The translations under genes and the position numbers were made by a program. Of a DNA stretch of 64,000 bases, positions 3,181 through 16,069 are shown one piece after another. The notes under the pieces were generated by a model that did not search any database, was not told the DNA's origin, and saw only the letters and a list, made by a program, of their open reading frames with translations. The DNA comes from Thermodesulfobacteriota bacterium (lineage in GTDB: Bacteria; Desulfobacterota; Desulfobulbia; Desulfobulbales; SURF-16), in the NCBI GenBank assembly GCA_039715015.1, contig JBDLIE010000010.1:1-64000 (forward strand), given 5' to 3'. How positions within the stretch are numbered: the stretch's first letter is position 1; each line of letters opens with the position of its first letter.

Positions 3181-4482
3181 CTAGAAAAAATAACGCGCCC
3201 GCAGCTCCAGCTTATTCTCGCTTAGCTTTTCGCCGAACTCGCTGTTCCTGGAACCGCCAAGCACGGAGAAACGCAGGCGCAGTTCCCAGTTAGTAAAAGC
3301 GCTGTACACCGCTTCCGGACTTAACGAAAAACTTTCGTCATCCAGGTTGAGAATGGCTGTGATACCGGGGGTGAAGTAGAGCAGGTCAAAGGGCTCTTTC
3401 TGGGTCACCCTGGCGTAAAGATAGTTGCGGCCGCTCTGGGGCTGGCCGTAGGCCCCTTGGCTCACCGTGGCTGCTTTTTGAAACAGGGTATCATCGCCCC
3501 TGGAGCTAAACAGAAGATCGGCCTTATCCACCAGCTGGAAAAAACGCTCCTGCTGCCGCTCCGTATAGCCGTCATCATTATGGTAATACTCAACAATGGC
3601 CGTGATGTCATTTTCGCTGAGATAACGCAGGCCCAGGAGATAACTGGTATCGGCAAATTCCCTGATTTCCACATTGCCAAGTTCATTTAAGACCCTCTGG
3701 GACTGCCTGGGAACATGGGCAATCTCGCCGTGGATCTCAAAATTGGTGGCCAGGTTGGTGGAAAAATCAAGGCCGTACCTGGTGGTGCGGCTGTTGCCGG
3801 TGTAGCAGAGAAGATCAATATCCACATCATGGTAAAGCAGGTAAAGCTTAGCAGCCACATTGACGTTGCCGCGCTCACCAAAATCCTCATTGACGTCGCG
3901 CCATACCGGCAGGGCCACTGTGGTCAGGGCCACGGTCTGCAGGGGACCGGAAAGGCTCTTAATCAGGTCCAGCCCGGCGCCCACATACCCCTCCAAGGCC
4001 TCCTCCGGATTATTAGGGTCCTTGGGACGATCGATAAACCCTACAGGGTTCCAGGCATACCCCTTGCCCCATTTGAAGACCTTTTTACCCAGATCAACAG
4101 TGGCCAGCGGCGTTGGTTTGACGCTGGCATAGGCCTCAAAAATATCGGCGTTATCTCCCCACTGTTCTTGGTCCTGGCGGCCAAAAGCTTGGACCAGCCA
4201 GTTGAAATCCACCATCCCCTTATTGAAATTAGCGCCGAGCTGCAGGGTGGCGGTGAGACGGTCCAGGGTGGAACGGGGGTCAAGATAGGAATCGACCAGG
4301 GCAAAGGCACCCTTCTCGTTGATATCCAGATGCTCGCCCTTGAGCTCCAGATAACCGCCCCATTCCAGACTCTTTTTCTCGAACTCGTCAAGATCGAATG
4401 AGAAGTCCTCCTCACCAGAAGCTGGACCAGCGCCGAGCAAAACAGAGAGAAAAATGATGCAAACTACTGGCCGGTGCAGCAC
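3181..4482 (-). CDS. Predicted outer-membrane beta-barrel protein
   Basis: Signal peptide, alternating beta-strand pattern, C-terminal ..RYFF; last gene of the ABC/LolA-like operon. Confidence 0.7.
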   Translation of the reverse strand: MLHRPVVCIIFLSVLLGAGPASGEEDFSFDLDEFEKKSLEWGGYLELKGEHLDINEKGAFALVDSYLDPRSTLDRLTATLQLGANFNKGMVDFNWLVQAFGRQDQEQWGDNADIFEAYASVKPTPLATVDLGKKVFKWGKGYAWNPVGFIDRPKDPNNPEEALEGYVGAGLDLIKSLSGPLQTVALTTVALPVWRDVNEDFGERGNVNVAAKLYLLYHDVDIDLLCYTGNSRTTRYGLDFSTNLATNFEIHGEIAHVPRQSQRVLNELGNVEIREFADTSYLLGLRYLSENDITAIVEYYHNDDGYTERQQERFFQLVDKADLLFSSRGDDTLFQKAATVSQGAYGQPQSGRNYLYARVTQKEPFDLLYFTPGITAILNLDDESFSLSPEAVYSAFTNWELRLRFSVLGGSRNSEFGEKLSENKLELRARYFF

Positions 4483-5663
4483 GTGCCCTTTACCTTTAAA
4501 AATTGCCGGCTGAGCATGGAAAGGAGAATCACCACATCAAGCAGCATAAAGAGCAGGGTAACGCCCTGGGTCAACGGGTAAGAGAGGCCATGCTTGAAGA
4601 CAAAAGTACAGAGCACGGCGTAGGCCACCATGGGGCAAATCAGGCCCCATTGCGACTCGTCAAAATATTCGATGCTGAAAAGATACTTTCTGAAATAGTC
4701 GCGCAGCATAAAAAGCCCTAAGGCCAAATACCAGGTCATCAGTCCAAAACCGGCAACCGCCACCAAGGCAAAGACGGCGGCAGGCAGCTGAACATGGAAC
4801 TTATGCTGAAAATAATAACCGTAGCGCAGCAAGGAGATGGTGAGCAGGGTAATGATGGGCACCACCACGAAGAAGGAGGGCAAAAACTCGATTTTCTCCG
4901 GCAAGCCTTTGGCGTAATGGGACTTAAAGAGGCTAAACAGCTTCACCAGCAGGAGAAAAAAAGCCATGGTGAAGGAGGTGATGGACAGGAAAAAGACTAT
5001 ATCAGCCAAACCGCCGTGGGCTAAGTATGAGATACCGGTGCCTGTGACCGTGGTCATAGCCAGGGCAAAGGGGATGAGGAGCCAGCCAAAATGCATCTTT
5101 TCCACATCAAAACCCTTTACCAGGGCAATAGCCTGCAACCTGATAGCTGTGGCCATGGTCCACAACCAGAGCAGAGCATAAACCGCAGCAGCATAGGGCA
5201 GCAGAAGCTGAACATTGACCCGCATCCAGTCGATAAAGACGTACCCCAAAACCAAAAAAACATTGAAGGCCATGCCGTAGGCCAACACGGGGGAAATCAA
5301 AACCGAATTTCGCTGGGTGTCTGCAAGCAGTTCCTGAAAGTGAGCCGGATGGCGGCGGCGCCAGGTTATGTAGAGCAGGGTAACGGCAAAAAGGGCGGTG
5401 AGATGCAAAAGACCGAAGACCACCATGTGGATCTTCATATAACCTGCCAGAAAGGGATAGATACCGCCTGCACTCGAAGCAAACTCATTAATCTTGGCAA
5501 AATAGAGCATGCCCTTCATGGGTGGGGTGCGGGGCAGGGTATTATTCAAAAAGGCGAAACCGGCCACCGAGGTGCCGCCAAAACCAAGAGCCATAATGAA
5601 CCAAAGCATATTAAACTGCTCAATGAGTTTCTCAAAAAAAGATTCGCTTTTTGCTGCTGCCAT
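4464..5663 (-). CDS. Polytopic membrane protein, TDT/SLAC1-like; Cys paralog of the Sec protein at 13031-14155
   Basis: About 10 TM segments; WFIMALGFGG, HFGWLLIP, SQWGLICP (C343); C-terminal CC. Confidence 0.75.
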   Translation of the reverse strand: MAAAKSESFFEKLIEQFNMLWFIMALGFGGTSVAGFAFLNNTLPRTPPMKGMLYFAKINEFASSAGGIYPFLAGYMKIHMVVFGLLHLTALFAVTLLYITWRRRHPAHFQELLADTQRNSVLISPVLAYGMAFNVFLVLGYVFIDWMRVNVQLLLPYAAAVYALLWLWTMATAIRLQAIALVKGFDVEKMHFGWLLIPFALAMTTVTGTGISYLAHGGLADIVFFLSITSFTMAFFLLLVKLFSLFKSHYAKGLPEKIEFLPSFFVVVPIITLLTISLLRYGYYFQHKFHVQLPAAVFALVAVAGFGLMTWYLALGLFMLRDYFRKYLFSIEYFDESQWGLICPMVAYAVLCTFVFKHGLSYPLTQGVTLLFMLLDVVILLSMLSRQFLKVKGTCCTGQ

Positions 5664-10464: not shown

Positions 10465-11796
10465 CTAGTTCTCCTCAACCTCCAACTCGCCCTCTTCAAC
10501 ACTCATTGTTCCATCCAGATACCGAGCCTTGCGCCCTTTTCCCTTAAGGACATTATGGCCCATCTCTGCCCTAATGCCGGTGTTGCAGTAGAGGATAAGC
10601 TCCTTATGGGGATCTAACTCTGCCTGACGCTTACCAAGCTGATCAACAGGGATGTTGACAGCACCGGCAATGGCGCCTTTGGCAAACTCATCAGGGTTTC
10701 TCACATCAACCAGCTGCATTGAACCCGGGGTTTTGCCGGCAACCTTTTCAAACTCAGCCACGGCAATGGTACCGGGTTTTGGCCTGGGCACATAGGTGAT
10801 GGTGGTTTTGGCAGCCCCTGTAGCCACAGGGTTGCCGGCCTTCTTCCAGGCCTTAAAGTCCATGGGCAGAATGCGGACAGCTTTGTAGCCCCAGGACACG
10901 GCTTGACTGGCAGCATCTTTACTGTTTGGCCCATAAAAAATGATCGGCGCCTTTTTCCGTTCGGGGAATTTTTCCTTGCTGGCAGCAAGCTTAGCGTATT
11001 CAATGCCAACAGCCCCTTTGATATGACCCTTTTTCACCGTGGCTGCACTGCGCAGATCAATAAGGACATGGGGAATATCCTTGCCAATGGCCATCTTCAG
11101 CCAGGCCGGTACCACCGTGCCATATTCGTTTTTGCTCCAATCAGGAAAACCACCGGTATAGATGCGGACATTCTCATAACCAAGACTCTTGGTCTTCATG
11201 GAGGCGGTGGGACTCAGACAGCCGCCCACGCCGTAGAAAACAATGGGGGTGGACTTATCTTTTGGCAGTTTGCCGATGAATTTATCAAAGGCCGGTGCCG
11301 GCATCATTCCAGCGCCGGGGATATGGCCCATCTTATACTTCATGGGTGGCCGGACATCATAGACCTTAACCTTAGGGTCCTTCTGCAACATCTTAAAGGC
11401 AGCGCGGTTAAGTTTCTCATCGTCACTGATGGCGCGCATGATATCAAAGCGGATGATCTCGGTGGCAACCCTCTCGCCCCCCTGTTTCGTATAGTTGATC
11501 TGAAAACCCTTCTTCTTATAATTACGGATATCTTTGAAGTCTTGAACGTACTTGACCCTGGTCTTGTCCGTGAACTTAACCACCTCTTTATGGGTCATAA
11601 AATCCATCTGGATGGTTTTTGATTTAATGGCGATGTTCTCCAAAAAACCCATCATCACACCTGGTTCCGGCTCATGACACATGCCGCATAGTTTGGCCAT
11701 GGGCACCTTAGCTGCTGTTGGTCCCTGGGCAAATACGGCAGGGGCGCATACCATGGCGGCGGCCAGATATGCACTAAAAAATAGCGAGCTCCTCAT
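10465..11796 (-). CDS. Secreted multi-domain rhodanese (sulfurtransferase) with one c-type heme motif
   Basis: Signal peptide; CGMCH; three rhodanese repeats (GHIPGA, GHIKGA, GAIAGA); loops FYGVGGCLS, FYG (no Cys) and LYCNTGIRA. Confidence 0.85.
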   Translation of the reverse strand: MRSSLFFSAYLAAAMVCAPAVFAQGPTAAKVPMAKLCGMCHEPEPGVMMGFLENIAIKSKTIQMDFMTHKEVVKFTDKTRVKYVQDFKDIRNYKKKGFQINYTKQGGERVATEIIRFDIMRAISDDEKLNRAAFKMLQKDPKVKVYDVRPPMKYKMGHIPGAGMMPAPAFDKFIGKLPKDKSTPIVFYGVGGCLSPTASMKTKSLGYENVRIYTGGFPDWSKNEYGTVVPAWLKMAIGKDIPHVLIDLRSAATVKKGHIKGAVGIEYAKLAASKEKFPERKKAPIIFYGPNSKDAASQAVSWGYKAVRILPMDFKAWKKAGNPVATGAAKTTITYVPRPKPGTIAVAEFEKVAGKTPGSMQLVDVRNPDEFAKGAIAGAVNIPVDQLGKRQAELDPHKELILYCNTGIRAEMGHNVLKGKGRKARYLDGTMSVEEGELEVEEN

Positions 11797-12215: not shown

Positions 12216-12902
12216 ATGATGATGTTTCCAGATAGAAAATTAGTTATCTGCGACCTGGACGGCACCTTGGTTGACAGTGTGCCAGATCTGGCCTTTTGCG
12301 TGGATGAGATGCTGGACCAAATCGACCTATCGCCTGCCGGAGAGGCAAAGGTACGGCAATGGGTGGGTAACGGCGTCGAGCGCCTGGTACAACGGGCCTT
12401 GCTCGGTGAGATGGAGGGTGAACCGGATGCAAATTTATTTAGCCGGGCCTTGCCAGTTTTTTTGGAGCTCTATGCCGACAATATCAGCCAGCGCAGCCGC
12501 CTTTTTCCAGGGGTGGAGCAGGGCCTTAACTGGTTGGCGGAGCGGAAAATAAATCTTGCCTGTGTAACTAATAAGGCGGAGCGTTATACCACTCCTCTTT
12601 TAAAAAATCTTGGGATATGCCATCGCTTCGGAATAGTGTTGAGCGGCGATAGTTTGAGCGAGAAAAAACCAAGCGGTCTGCCCCTGCTCCATGCAGCAAA
12701 GCATTTTGGCCTCCAGCCTGAAAATTGCCTGATGGTTGGCGATTCGATCAGCGATGTCAAGGCCGCCAGGGCAGCAGGCATTGCCGTTGTTTGCCTGAGC
12801 TACGGCTATAACCACGGCATGGATATCCGTACCGCCGAGCCGGACGCAGTGATCGATAGCCTGGCCGAGCTGCCTGCACTTCTTGCTGAAAATTTGAAAT
12901 AA
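12216..12902 (+). CDS. gph: Phosphoglycolate phosphatase (HAD)
   Basis: DLDGTLVDSVPDL, WVGNG, VTNK, KKP, MVGDS..D, YGYNHG. Confidence 0.9.
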   Translation: MMMFPDRKLVICDLDGTLVDSVPDLAFCVDEMLDQIDLSPAGEAKVRQWVGNGVERLVQRALLGEMEGEPDANLFSRALPVFLELYADNISQRSRLFPGVEQGLNWLAERKINLACVTNKAERYTTPLLKNLGICHRFGIVLSGDSLSEKKPSGLPLLHAAKHFGLQPENCLMVGDSISDVKAARAAGIAVVCLSYGYNHGMDIRTAEPDAVIDSLAELPALLAENLK

Positions 12903-12970
12903 AAAAAGGAGTTACCGGCTAAACCGATAACTCCTTTGAAAATACAAAAATGGTCGGGGCGAGAGGATTC
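12901..12970. repeat. att-like direct repeat, copy 1: last 20 nt of tRNA-Pro plus 50 nt of downstream hairpin
   Basis: 69/70 identical to 15787-15856. Confidence 0.92.
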
Positions 12971-13030
12971 CCTCTTTTCAGTACCCCCTTGAGGGGTAAC
13001 CCTCCGATCTCCTGTTCCCATCCACCGCCT

Positions 13031-14155
13031 TTACGCAGGTTGTCTTGAGGCGGCAATAAATTTTTTGAATATTAGAAAAAACACGACAGTGACAAAGATG
13101 ATGCTGAAAAAATTCACAGCACCGAGAAAGGCACTGGCAAAGTAGAGCTTGTAAACCATTGTACCCAAAACTTGGGTACCGACAAAGCCTCAGACCATCC
13201 CCCATTGAGCAGGAGAAAACTCGGCAGACAAAAACTCCTTTCGCAAATATTCCCTCAACCAGTATACCGCAAAAACAAACCACACCATTGCCCCTGTGTA
13301 AGAGAAGGTCATGGTCAGAAATGAGGCTGTAGACAGATCAACCCCATAACTCTTGCCGGTAAACATCATGAGCTTAAAAGAGCTGAAACCAAGCAGACAC
13401 ATGGGTGGTACGAATAAAAAATAGGCCGGCAGGATATTAACCGTGGGCCTCGCCGCCGATTTCACCTGTTGGTAAACAAGGACAGACATTTTAAAGGCAA
13501 AGACAACCAGCCCCAAAGCCAAAGTGATGGAAACCATAATTGCTGCAGTGCTGGAAATCAGATGATTTTCTGATGCGTTGACCAGGCTCGAACCAAACAA
13601 CGACACTGCTCCCAAGGCCAGCACATCAAGCAACCAGCCAAAATTCATGCTCGTATAATCAACCTGGTTTGTTAGAAAAACCTGGATAGTTTTTATTTCC
13701 AAGGCCAGCAAAGGCAGCCACAAAAGGCAAAACATCGTAAATGCCGGGGCCATCAGGGCCTGCATGTTTGCCGTTATCTGCGGCATAAAAAAGCTCAGCG
13801 GCCCAAAGAGGACAATCATGGTCATCGGCAAGGAGATGAGCGGTGAAAACAGCGATGCACAGGTCAAAGGGTTGTGCAGTATCTCTTTAAAAGAGCTGGG
13901 ACTGGCCAGCCACCTTATGAGCTGGTTACAAAAGATGGCCGTCAGGCTGAGATGAATAACAATAAAGCTCGCCATGACAGCAATCAGCAACCAGGCAATG
14001 GCGTACTCCACACTCGGGCCGGTCAAGAACGATAGGTCAGACAGGGAAATCTGTCCATCGCTTTTAAAAATATTAACCTTCAGAAAAATATAGGGCATCA
14101 GGGCAACACCGGCTGCTGCCAGTGTTCCTTGAAATTTCAAGGGCGTAAATTTCAT
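13031..14155 (-). CDS. Predicted selenoprotein, TDT/SLAC1-like membrane protein (374 aa, U322)
   Basis: TGA at 13190-13192 is followed by 52 in-frame hydrophobic codons to TAA; QWGMV-U-GFV aligns with QWGLI-C-PMV of the paralog; SECIS-like hairpin follows. Confidence 0.88.
13161..13189 (-). promoter_or_regulatory. SECIS-like hairpin
   Basis: UGA-N10-GUACCCAA GUU UUGGGUAC; perfect 8-bp stem, apical G at +19. Confidence 0.75.
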
Positions 14156-14181
14156 TTGGCGGTACCTCCTTGCATTGGGGT

Positions 14182-14488
14182 TTACGTTAAAACCTTATCA
14201 GCCTCCTTTGCTATTTCATACAAATCATCCATCCAACCTATGGAGCATGGCTTGATCCCTCCAGACCGTGGGATTTCATACACACGCCTCAGACGTAAAA
14301 ATCTCCCTCAAATTTGTTGACCTGCTCCATGACATCAAACTCTGCGCTGCCAACCTGGAAAAAGAGTACGCCTTTACCAAGCATGAAGACGCTGATGTCA
14401 TCCTCCTTTTTACGCCAACATTGGCCAGGCGCATGGCATTGAAGATCGACTCACCATCACTTGTGCTGATGATAATAAGCATATTCAT
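14182..14488 (-). pseudogene. DsrE-family selenoprotein (UxxC) broken by two 1-nt deletions
   Basis: Restored reading MNMLIIIST..NAMRLA..ISVFMLGKGV..FYV-U-GVCMKSHGL..PCSIGWMDDLYEIAKEADKVLT; TGA at 14289-14291; shifts at the runs 14407-14411 and 14257-14259. Confidence 0.8.
14255..14288 (-). promoter_or_regulatory. SECIS-like hairpin
   Basis: UGA-N14-AUCCCA CGGUC UGGAGGGAU; loop G at +22. Confidence 0.6.
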
Positions 14489-14506
14489 CGACTCTCCTCC
14501 CTGTTG

Positions 14507-14749
14507 TTAAATATTCTCTGAAAGAAACGTTTCCAGCTTTTCCTTATCCGTTGCCACGTCCAGCGCTATAAATTCACCGTTTAGGAGTACATTGGTTGCC
14601 CTCGCTTTGGCCTCCTCTGGATCCGTGGTCAGGATCTTTACTTCAAGGCTCTTGCCATATTTATCCTTCATCTCCTGGGCTGCATCCATAGCCCTCTTGC
14701 AGGTTACTCATGCCGGGTTGCCGATGTGAAAAACCGTTAATGTGACCAT
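14507..14749 (-). CDS. Predicted thioredoxin-like selenoprotein (80 aa, U14-V-T-C17)
   Basis: AGGAG RBS and ATG at 14749 give MVTLTVFHIGNPA-U-VTCKRAMDAAQEMKDKY...; TGA at 14708-14710 is in frame with the 60-aa ORF. Confidence 0.88.
14674..14707 (-). promoter_or_regulatory. SECIS-like hairpin
   Basis: UGA..CCU..GGGCU AUGGAUGC AGCCC AGG; loop GG at +21/22. Confidence 0.6.
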
Positions 14750-14759
14750 ACCTTCTCCT

Positions 14760-15206
14760 TTACGTGTTTTCTTTGGTGAGCTTTGCCAGCAGGAAAGCGG
14801 CGCCGCTTACTGAGATACCCAGGACTGCTGCAAGGTCCTGGGGGCTGGCATCCATGTTTGATTTCAGGAAGGATTGCACCTCTTCTTCAAGCTCGTCGAG
14901 CCAGCTTTCAAAGAGAATGAGAATGTCCGGGTCGGCAACGGCCATGAGCTGTTTTGACTGGGCAACCTTATGGACCAAACTCTGACACATGCTTGTTGGA
15001 TCGACACCTTCGTCCATGCATTCGGAAAGTCAGAGATTAACCATGCTTGAAACCTTATCGGCCCCGGCATCGCCAACCAGTGACACGACAAAATCAAGGC
15101 GGGCCTCGTCACTTATCTGCGAAAGCAGGCTGTTGGCAGCCTTGGCAATTGCCGCTAAGGCCTGCTCTGGCTCCATCCGAGCTATTACCTCTTCAAGTTC
15201 AACCAT
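14760..15206 (-). CDS. Predicted selenoprotein of unknown family (148 aa, U59-L-S-E-C63, HTH-like C-terminus)
   Basis: GGAGG RBS and ATG at 15206; 58 codons to TGA at 15030-15032, then in frame into the 85-aa ORF, which has no obvious RBS of its own. Confidence 0.8.
14989..15029 (-). promoter_or_regulatory. SECIS-like hairpin
   Basis: UGA-N13-UGGACGA AGGUG UCG(A)UCCA with outer AUGC/GCAU; loop G at +22. Confidence 0.65.
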
Positions 15207-15224
15207 TTTAAAAATCCTCCAGCG

Positions 15225-15539
15225 TCAAAAAGTCGTCCGGCACCGTAACAGATCTTCCCCCAACTCGTTTAGCTGTTCGAGTATGGTGAGGATACGGTCA
15301 TCGGTTAGCTCATAGTATACGAAAGGCCCTCGGCGCTCGACGCTTACCAGCAGAGACCTTTTCAGCTCTTTTAGATGGTGGGAGACAAGGGGCTGGGAAA
15401 GGTTGAGTTCCTCCACAATGGTGGAGACAGACTTCTTCTCTTTGACACTAAGCAGTATGCGCAACCTATTTTCATCGGCCAGGCATTTAGCCAAAAAAGC
15501 CTGGATATGCAGATTAACCCCATCTCTGTTTTTTGCCAT
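15225..15539 (-). CDS. ArsR/SmtB family transcriptional regulator
   Basis: LADENRLRIL, LSQPLVSHHLKELK, RRGPFVYYEL. Confidence 0.93.
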   Translation of the reverse strand: MAKNRDGVNLHIQAFLAKCLADENRLRILLSVKEKKSVSTIVEELNLSQPLVSHHLKELKRSLLVSVERRGPFVYYELTDDRILTILEQLNELGEDLLRCRTTF

Positions 15540-15606
15540 AATGACTTGTTTTTACATTTATTACTGAACCACTTTTCAGCGTGTTTCTAAAAAATTTCCT
15601 CGCCGC

Positions 15607-15640
15607 CATAACCACATAAATATCCATTTATATGGTTATG
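15607..15640. promoter_or_regulatory. Palindromic operator overlapping a TTGACA -35 element; probable ArsR site
   Basis: CATAACCACATAAAT-ATCC-ATTTATATGGTTATG (14/15 inverted); TTGACA on the minus strand at 15639-15644. Confidence 0.75.
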
Positions 15641-15786
15641 TCAACACACTTTCTTGTTGAGCCTAAAATGTTATGTTTGTCAGGAGGGATTTGGACTGAA
15701 GATACTTTGAGCTGCTACGAGGTAGCAGATTGAGCGATCAAAAAAGGGTTAAGCATTTTCGGTATAAAAAACTTTCATCAAAAACA

Positions 15787-15914
<128 letters not shown>

Positions 15915-16069
15915 ACTTCAATTGGGAAGAAAACCATGTATCATCCCCTGCCGGTCCAGTCAAGGAAAATATAGTTTGCTGCTTCCGGTGTCATGCTTCC
16001 TTTTTAGCTATTTTTACACCTGTAGTTTGTAAGTGGGGACAATTATTTTCTGTGGACATTCGACAGCTG

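Follow-up and report, generated by a model that had tools for sequence, protein, structure and literature searches.

We analysed a 64,000-nt stretch of DNA from a Thermodesulfobacteriota bacterium (contig JBDLIE010000010.1, positions 1 to 64,000), hereafter called the window, to which coordinates given without a locus name refer. It carries on its minus strand an operon of the Tso ('three selenoprotein operon') family. Read with TGA as selenocysteine (Sec, U), positions 15539-13031 hold five co-directional genes in the order tsoR-tsoA-tsoX-(DsrE-like)-tsoY, spaced by 18, 10, 18 and 26 nt, with a GGAGG-like Shine-Dalgarno sequence 5' of every ATG. The five genes are as follows.

15225..15539, minus strand: tsoR, an ArsR/SmtB-type winged-helix regulator of 104 aa
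14760..15206, minus strand: tsoA, a selenoprotein of 148 aa with U59 at TGA 15032-15030, motif L-U-L-S-E-C
14507..14749, minus strand: tsoX, a small, possibly thioredoxin-like selenoprotein of 80 aa with U14-x-x-C17, TGA 14710-14708
14182..14488, minus strand: a DsrE-like selenoprotein gene that has kept its TGA (14291-14289, U-G-V-C) as well as its SECIS (the sequence for Sec insertion), and carries two 1-nt deletions
13031..14155, minus strand: tsoY, 374 aa, a membrane selenoprotein with the ten-helix SLAC1/TehA fold and U322 at TGA 13192-13190

We compared the products with the NCBIfam models of the Tso families (NF045707 for TsoR, NF045695 for TsoA, NF045694 for TsoB, NF045708 for TsoC, NF045809 for TsoX and NF047643/NF047644 for TsoY). 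The results showed that all four curated members scored above the cut-offs of their equivalog models: TsoR with 151.6 bits (cut-off 115), TsoA with 215.1 bits (cut-off 170, model positions 1-143 of 144), TsoX with 95.6 bits (cut-off 52) and TsoY with 470.5 bits against NF047643 (cut-off 250, positions 1-366 of 366). TsoR also matched PF01022 (37 bits) and TsoY matched PF03595 (39.1 bits, cut-off 27.9). In tsoA, tsoX and tsoY these curated hidden Markov models (HMMs) match from end to end, straight through the TGAs; the pattern of TGAs and motifs in the operon exceeds chance by far. The motifs are U59-LSE-C63 in TsoA (UxxxC), U14-VT-C17 in TsoX (UxxC) and U-GV-C in the DsrE-like protein (UxxC). 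The operon is a genuine Sec-decoding module of the already described Tso family, with the layout R-A-X-DsrE-Y. In its account of Tso, a review (PMC13188914) cites Haft & Tolstoy 2025 (mSystems 10:e0141724), and a table in the same review lists DsrE-like UxxC selenoproteins among the predicted prokaryotic selenoproteins. The operon is a rarer-layout member of a published, curated family, not a new system. Taken together, the explanation developed below, which covers Tso identity, a probably decayed DsrE-like gene and insertion as a cassette, is in our judgement very probable; the mechanism proposed along with it is much less so.

An earlier note, made from the sequence alone, had described a hidden ArsR-headed operon of four consecutive predicted selenoproteins. 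Much of that description was borne out. Each gene does have its own Shine-Dalgarno sequence and ATG, the TGA positions it gave (15030, 14708, 14289 and 13190) are correct, and its gaps of 10-26 nt agree with the spacing measured here. Three TGAs fall in UxxxC, UxxC and UxxC motifs as it had said; the fourth pairs with a Cys in a paralogue within the window (TsoY U322, 'QWGMVU' against 'QWGLIC'), and calling of open reading frames (ORFs) did break the operon into fragments. The label 'TsoY (seleno)protein', which it had mentioned, is that of NF047643/NF047644. The word 'hidden' cannot be kept, since TsoR, TsoA, TsoX and TsoY already have curated NCBIfam models and the Tso operon is published; the discovery value is small for the same reason.

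The genome from which the window comes (3.01 Mb, 100 contigs, 99.99% complete) encodes selA (618 bits), selB (373 bits), selD (361 bits) and tRNA-Sec, which answers the check for selA/selB/selC/selD that had been proposed with that description. A second proposed check concerned homologues with a kept TGA or a Cys. Among copies drawn from 35 relatives' loci, TGA was kept at the Sec column in 37/37 TsoA, 6/6 TsoX and 4/4 TsoY genes, and the sequence was conserved on both sides of this column. The DsrE-like gene had TGA in 9/13 copies and Cys in 4/13, and Cys forms also occur in TsoY. We then considered TsoA in an even sample of the phylum (401 genomes). It matched at E <=1e-10 in 40 genomes, in 30 of them above the cut-off; the full-length matches carried one TGA in 41/41, and four matches that had no TGA were confined to the C-terminal portion of the model, past the Sec column. 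No Cys form of TsoA was found among the 401 + 41 genomes searched; for TsoX, Sec was the sole form seen, in 7/7 copies. The selD gene itself (TIGR00476, L010 = G000:C51:11990-12904) contains one in-frame TGA, and SelD is probably a selenoprotein too.

Hairpins lie downstream of the four TGAs, with apical loops that contain G(G)U and start 21-24 nt from the U of UGA.

14997..15016, minus strand: SECIS-like tsoA hairpin of 7 bp, one A bulged, loop AGGUG, loop start 24 nt from the U of UGA
14694-14677, minus strand: hairpin of tsoX, with a U-A to C-G change in L033
about 14278-14253, minus strand: SECIS hairpin of the DsrE-like gene, loop GGUCUG
13161..13179, minus strand: SECIS-like hairpin of tsoY, 8-bp stem, loop GUU, loop start 22 nt from the U of UGA

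For tsoA, a formal pair count over 38 sequences (34 distinct) showed that 97.5% of cells were paired. One pair covaries, being A-U in 22, G-C in 12 and unpaired in 0 of the 34 distinct sequences; its covariation score was reached by 0/500 shuffles, and pairing fell to 8-43% when the register was slid. This pair links an Asp/Gly replacement with a synonymous GAT/GAC change. In the other three hairpins covariation was judged by eye. Besides the change in tsoX, the DsrE-like stem occurs as CCCAC/GAGGG, CCCGC/GCGGG, CCCGU/ACGGG and CCCAC/GUGGG around a constant GGUC loop. The tsoY hairpin differs from that of L069 by two adjacent pairs changed on both sides (U-A/A-U to C-G/U-A) and from that of L073 by one compensatory change (A-U to G-C), and has two mismatches in L034.

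These observations bear directly on the reading that the TGAs are ordinary stops and that the region consists of short genes or decayed fragments with no selenoproteins. The fragments produced by standard ORF calling would suit that reading, as would the DsrE-like gene, which is truly decayed (see below). It is already contradicted by HMMs that align through the TGAs, by a TGA column and downstream sequence conserved in all relatives, by Cys at the same column in non-Sec homologues, by hairpins that covary and by a complete Sec machinery, and we consider it extremely improbable. UGA is read as Sec at TsoA U59, TsoX U14 and TsoY U322, and insertion there is directed by the downstream hairpin, a predicted binding site of SelB, together with the SelA/SelB/SelD/tRNA-Sec set.

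The DsrE-like coding sequence is split across three frames. A reading that starts from the ATG at 14488 misses the TGA at 14291-14289; it runs into TGA 14278-14276, three more TGAs and then a TAA. The intact orthologues in genomes G015 and G022 are single-frame, 103 aa long and carry U-G-V-C, and DNA alignment with them placed the first deletion in the GTAAAAA... stretch near 14402-14412 and the second at 14250/14249. Against PF02635 (cut-off 22.7) the orthologues scored 37.0 and 34.1 bits and the largest fragment from the window 21.4 bits. The intact orthologues matched no NCBIfam model at E <=1e-5, which means that this subfamily is not among the curated members of Tso. With the DsrE-like selenoproteins tabulated in PMC13188914 the gene shares the PF02635 domain and the U-x-x-C motif; the family shows Sec/Cys pairing in relatives and a GGUC-loop SECIS, whereas the copy in the window is frameshifted twice.

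We compared the locus with assemblies built separately from sequencing runs. A Logan contig of run X1, a marine metagenome (2888 nt, depth 56.9), was identical over 2614/2614 bases with 0 gaps; X1 may be the source sample of the window, and the match rules out that assembly or polishing produced the deletions, though not that a systematic error in the reads did. Contigs of run X2 gave zero coverage of the locus. Elsewhere in the window ORFs of >=90 aa cover 87% of the sequence, which makes general indel noise unlikely. These results indicate that the DsrE-like gene is, with good probability, a recent pseudogene. The earlier description of four consecutive selenoproteins, each with exactly one in-frame TGA, therefore stands for tsoA, tsoX and tsoY and fails for the fourth gene, which is split over three frames by two 1-nt deletions. 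Programmed frameshifting was considered and rejected, as the orthologues are single-frame, it would take two separate slips, and the second of the two sites does not have a slippery sequence. Two short minor X1 contigs are ~90-95% alike to the window: one of depth 22.1 (window 14250-14282) diverges at 14250, the other, of depth 2.6 (window 14367-14402), at 14402. Their break points lie close to the deletion sites and their unmatched ends resemble intact DsrE-like orthologues; they are taken to come from related organisms in the sample.

We surveyed gene neighbourhoods by tblastn with nine query families, one exemplar per family, at E <=1e-6. The survey covered 36 loci with 38 TsoA copies, namely the window, 15 relatives and 20 loci chosen from the stronger of 45 phylum matches, which makes it a non-random sample. 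The tsoR gene stood immediately upstream of tsoA in 37/38 copies. The partners of this pair varied: TsoC was found in 21 of the 36 loci, TsoB, a fusion of rhodanese, DsbD and thioredoxin, in 19, and a DsrE-like gene in 11. Less frequent were TsoX (7 loci), TsoY (5), an SQR-like flavoprotein (4) and a ferredoxin-type membrane protein resembling NapH (3). The best NCBIfam match of the SQR-like flavoprotein was the type III sulfide:quinone reductase (SQR) model, below its cut-off. The order R-A-X-DsrE-Y occurred in only 3/36 loci (the window, G015 and G022). In G070 the order is R-A-X-DsrE, with the NapH-like gene, TsoY and a Cys-form DsrE-like gene just upstream; in G315 DsrE-Y is located upstream of R-A; and in the congener G002 (L033:3319-6689) TsoR-TsoA is followed by the SQR-like flavoprotein, the NapH-like protein and TsoX, in that order. 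The TsoA match in G002 contains one TAA. Four TsoA copies occur in one genome of the phylum sample (G090:C29, which is L065, and G090:C11) as two pairs of neighbouring loci, and at L065 a canonical R-A-B-C-C set adjoins a second R-A pair and a Cys-form DsrE-like gene.

Compared with published Tso neighbourhoods, the operon in the window has the same regulator-first order, Sec at the family motif positions and a similar taxonomic home, the nearest database proteins being from Desulfobulbaceae metagenome-assembled genomes. Their names suggest an uncultured organism of the Desulfobulbaceae/Desulfobulbales. It differs in motif shifts (LULSEC for LULAxC in TsoA, HIGNPAU for HSGNPxU in TsoX), in the probable decay of its DsrE-like member and in lacking TsoB and TsoC, the two other eponymous selenoproteins. 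On the whole genome the TsoB model NF045694 (cut-off 805) gave a best match of 56.7 bits and the TsoC model NF045708 (cut-off 45 bits) gave zero matches; both models recover their targets in relatives. The locus is a compact three-selenoprotein version of the Tso system, with a candidate operator described below, and a naturally DsrE-less variant of it. Partial matches to the TsoB model elsewhere in the genome, on G000 contigs C1, C19, C18 and C2 (L014, L016, L017 and L018), are rhodanese-/thioredoxin-like stretches with one in-frame TGA each, possibly further selenoproteins.

TsoR shows the ArsR-fold motifs DENRLRIL and SQPLVSHHLKELK. An alignment of 35 TsoR sequences contained no conserved cysteine: C19 is replaced by S, A, T, G or I in other members, and C100 is found only in the window. 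No His/Asp/Glu cluster was present in the last helix. We considered TsoR as a two-cysteine sensor of the BigR/SqrR type and rejected this, as no conserved Cys pair is present and the BigR model NF040642 gave 37.1 bits against a cut-off of 155. With no conserved Cys and no His/Asp/Glu cluster, TsoR is, judged by its sequence, neither a BigR/SqrR-type sensor nor an obvious metal sensor. BigR and SqrR are persulfide- or sulfite-sensing ArsR-family repressors. Their systems likewise have an ArsR-fold repressor at the head of a sulfur-handling operon, and rhodanese, DsrE and SQR-type partners occur in loci related to the operon in the window; TsoR lies outside that family, though it may work similarly.

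Upstream of tsoR we found a possible site of control.

15608..15644, minus strand: putative tsoR promoter and operator, TTGACA at 15644-15639 overlapping a palindrome at 15639-15608

The palindrome is imperfect, 32 nt long, and has the core ATAAA-N6-TTTAT at 15631-15616. This core was observed once in the 64-kb window against 0.05 expected. It was found in exact form in 19/35 of the relatives' Tso loci, mostly within the 250 nt that precede tsoR or the operon's first gene, and in 0 of the non-Tso loci compared; additional Tso loci have it with one or two mismatches. The TTGACA at 15644 went uncalled in a simple promoter scan because its -10 element is poor. The palindrome is a candidate operator for TsoR. 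In G017 and G015 (L032:1348-1677; L034) a conserved ORF of ~109 aa, of no assigned family, lies upstream of tsoR, with an ATAAA-N6-TTTAT box upstream of it; this ORF is absent from the window.

In an alignment of 37 TsoA sequences U59, C63, G67, P70 and M73 were invariant and C74 was present in 36/37; the window protein has S in place of A in the family motif LULAxC. The AlphaFold2 (AF2) model of TsoA is all-helical (mean predicted local distance difference test (pLDDT) 71.8, predicted TM-score (pTM) 0.38), and its C-terminus forms a three-helix domain resembling a helix-turn-helix (HTH). The last ~42 residues superpose on the winged HTH (wHTH) domains of Lrp/AsnC, FapR and MntR with a root-mean-square deviation of ~1 Å, at a non-significant Foldseek E of >=0.3, and the Pfam family HTH_24 matched at E 0.0097, below cut-off. 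One reading of these data makes TsoA a regulatory sensor, not an enzyme. The signal would react with its Sec/Cys centre; a switch in transcription would follow through the HTH-like tail or through contact with TsoR, and the variable downstream genes would be the effectors. The sole invariant pair of the system, TsoR-TsoA, next to downstream genes that vary, the want of a conserved Cys in TsoR, the wHTH superposition and the sub-threshold HTH_24 match speak for it. The fold matches are non-significant, the model is of low confidence, and adjacency alone is weak evidence. We hold this reading to be possible and short of probable. Because it is the invariable partner of a cysteine-free regulator, TsoA is nevertheless the likeliest sensor that we can name, a tentative assignment.

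TsoX matched Thioredoxin_3 weakly (E 0.036, 14.5 bits, cut-off 24.8), and the position of its UxxC after the first predicted beta-strand fits a thioredoxin fold. TsoX of the window is 4 residues shorter than its six orthologues, ending '...AKARATNVLL' where they end '...AKGYNFRSSTNVLF'.

The AF2 model of TsoY is of high confidence (pLDDT 93.7, pTM 0.92) and places U322 on helix 315-337, the ninth long or transmembrane (TM) helix. A Foldseek search with it returned SLAC1, SLAH3 or TehA for all of the top 24 matches, with probability 1.00 and target-normalised TM-scores of 0.62-0.74. Of 90 database homologues, 80 end in ...QWG(M/I)(V/I), at the residue before the Sec column; five others are full-length (373-388 aa) with Cys at that column, and five are fragments. 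The 80 are truncated gene calls, and herein lies the annotation value of the locus: standard gene calling truncates or splits these genes. Among the truncated homologues of the Sec type, P0063, P0064 and P0076 (45-50% identity) come from Clostridia-type isolates (Anaeromicrobium, Wukongibacter and Acidaminobacter), so the TsoY family crosses phyla. It is rare, being present in 4/401 genomes of the phylum sample. The Sec forms lay within 2 kb of a TsoA gene in 4/4 cases and the two Cys forms did not. A Cys form is also encoded in the window.

4467..5663, minus strand: Cys-form paralogue of the TsoY family, 399 aa, NF047644 235.4 bits (cut-off 150)

This paralogue shares 28% identity with TsoY, carries Cys where TsoY has Sec, and has no adjoining Tso gene.

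The fold relates TsoY to anion channels whose pore has been described. In the part of PMC11050165 that deals with HiTehA, odd-numbered helices line the pore and the gating Phe262 lies on TM9. We aligned 11 full-length TsoY-family proteins with E. coli TehA using MAFFT L-INS-i. The results showed that their Sec/Cys column aligns with F262 of E. coli TehA, which pairs gap-free with F262 of HiTehA, and that the TsoY family and TehA have in common the register F-x4-W-x3-[F/U/C]-G at the start of the helix (TM9). TsoY and TehA/SLAC1/SLAH3 (PDB 3m71, 7en0, 8j1e and 9m7r) thus share the ten-helix fold and the W-x3-Φ-G register of the TM9 start; their sequence identity to TsoY is only 9-16%, and in this alignment the gating Phe of HiTehA is replaced by Sec in TsoY and by Cys in its paralogues. 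The tehB partner of TehA was not seen beside TsoY in the 36 loci, which were searched with nine query families only.

Several results weigh against placing Sec at the position of Phe262. Profile methods gave it no support: hhalign of A4 against E. coli TehA had a probability of 0.11%, hhalign of TsoY against a 10-sequence TehA-type alignment had a probability of 0.75% and paired the wrong helices, and a small custom HMM gave E >=0.15. The equivalence comes from a multiple alignment at about 10% identity together with the helix register. A PDB sequence search with the TsoY profile did not find TehA. We regard the assignment of the TsoY Sec column to the gating Phe262 position as moderately supported; if it is right, the TsoY selenol would sit at the pore constriction. 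TsoY would then be a new type of SLAC1/TehA pore in which Sec or Cys replaces the gating Phe, and the joint proposal that this holds and that TsoA, not TsoR, is the Sec-based sensor is rather unlikely in our estimation. Were it true, the selenol of TsoY could let its substrate through (hydropolysulfide, selenide or another chalcogen anion of this kind) by short-lived exchange of Se-S/Se-Se bonds, or else the constriction could open and close with its redox state, which would give a specific hypothesis for the need of Sec in a membrane pore. In a full-text literature search the Tso names turned up in this sense in PMC13188914 alone. The pore-gate idea is not mentioned in the Tso account of PMC13188914; the primary Tso paper lay outside this check.

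From the company of these genes we infer that the Tso module handles reactive sulfur or selenium species. The recurrent partners, which are a rhodanese-DsbD-thioredoxin fusion, DsrE-like and SQR-like proteins and small thioredoxin-like UxxC/xxU proteins, make sulfane sulfur or selenium a likelier cargo than metals. A mechanism can be proposed on this basis. The module would handle sulfane sulfur/hydropolysulfide or selenide, and TsoR would repress the operon at the ATAAA-N6-TTTAT palindrome overlapping the -35 box. Lacking a conserved cysteine, TsoR is probably not where the signal is sensed; the best candidate for that would be TsoA with its U-x3-C...C centre and HTH-like tail. TsoY would act as a TehA/SLAC1-type anion pore in which Sec (Cys in paralogues) has replaced the gating Phe, so that the permeant species would meet a selenol at the constriction. 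On the cytoplasmic side the thioredoxin-like UxxC protein TsoX would accept or reduce this species, a role that the DsrE-like UxxC carrier may share where it is intact. As a joint scheme of TsoR repression, TsoA sensing, a TsoY pore and TsoX/DsrE acceptors, this is a tentative proposal that we hold to be less likely than not. The scheme of the earlier note (sensor, reductase, sulfur carrier and anion channel) is plausible and omits TsoA, the selenoprotein invariably paired with the regulator; TsoR, its presumed sensor, is, as far as its sequence tells, without the conserved cysteines expected of a persulfide-sensing ArsR protein.

Other points count against the mechanism just outlined. The contact between TsoR and TsoA is purely conjectural, and the TsoA model is weakest around the Sec centre (pLDDT 45-58). 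The DsrE-like member is dispensable here, which weakens schemes that require it. With TsoB and TsoC missing, the R-A-X-DsrE-Y layout may have a different role from that of the canonical A-B-C operon. Homology to TehA and control by an ArsR-type protein would suit the handling of tellurite, selenite or metalloids as well as that of sulfur. The cassette could on that account be a resistance module against a metalloid or chalcogen oxyanion (tellurite, selenite or arsenite), in which an ArsR-type metalloregulator controls a TehA-like efflux or uptake pore and Sec-containing thiol-disulfide proteins reduce or chelate the toxicant. The TsoY fold is that of TehA, tellurite resistance protein A, the TsoR model is named for an ArsR/SmtB-type metalloregulator, and UxxC, UxxxC and further Cys residues could bind soft metal(loid)s. 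TsoR, however, has none of the conserved sets of Cys or His ligands by which ArsR/SmtB proteins sense metals, the recurrent partners are of sulfur-trafficking types (rhodanese, DsrE, SQR-like), and the 36 loci, searched with nine query families only, showed no partner gene of the ars, mer or teh kinds, tehB included. We find resistance a doubtful function for the cassette, and handling of reactive sulfur or selenium species remains the reading that we prefer.

The operon occupies a 2.9-kb cassette between gph and a tRNA gene, bounded by the following features.

15837-15914, minus strand: intact tRNA-Pro(UGG) gene
15787..15856, no strand assigned: direct repeat on the tRNA side, 70 nt, overlapping the 3' end of the intact tRNA-Pro(UGG)
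12901..12970, no strand assigned: direct repeat on the gph side, 70 nt, comprising the last 20 nt of tRNA-Pro and 50 nt of downstream flank
12905..12937, minus strand: terminator-like hairpin downstream of tsoY, 15 bp and a T-run, within the gph-side repeat

The two repeats are 99% identical and are spaced by 2886 nt, and an Rfam search of 12800-16000 gave only tRNA-Pro above its gathering score. In the congeners G003 and G004 (L049:2364-3231; L050:814-1711) the site is empty, with comF, tRNA-Pro and gph contiguous, and TsoA is absent from both; only 1/7 congeners has TsoA. We used DnaN as a housekeeping yardstick, since Gph proved unusable: the three genomes of other genera yielded no Gph match at E <=1e-20. 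DnaN of the window's genome is 85-88% identical to that of congeners and 56-58% identical to that of G022, G015 and G017. TsoA, on the other hand, is 76-77% and TsoY 85% identical to the proteins of these other genera, compared with 56% for TsoA and 40% for TsoX in the congener G002. The cassette is thus closer to those found in other genera than to the one in a congener, and horizontal acquisition is probable. No integrase was found within the 2.9-kb cassette. The duplicated flank includes 50 nt beyond tRNA-Pro. About 1.2 kb past the cassette, on the far side of gph, positions 10468-11796 of the minus strand encode a 443-aa protein with three rhodanese domains. The insertion site itself is precise, so that the cassette would move as a unit.

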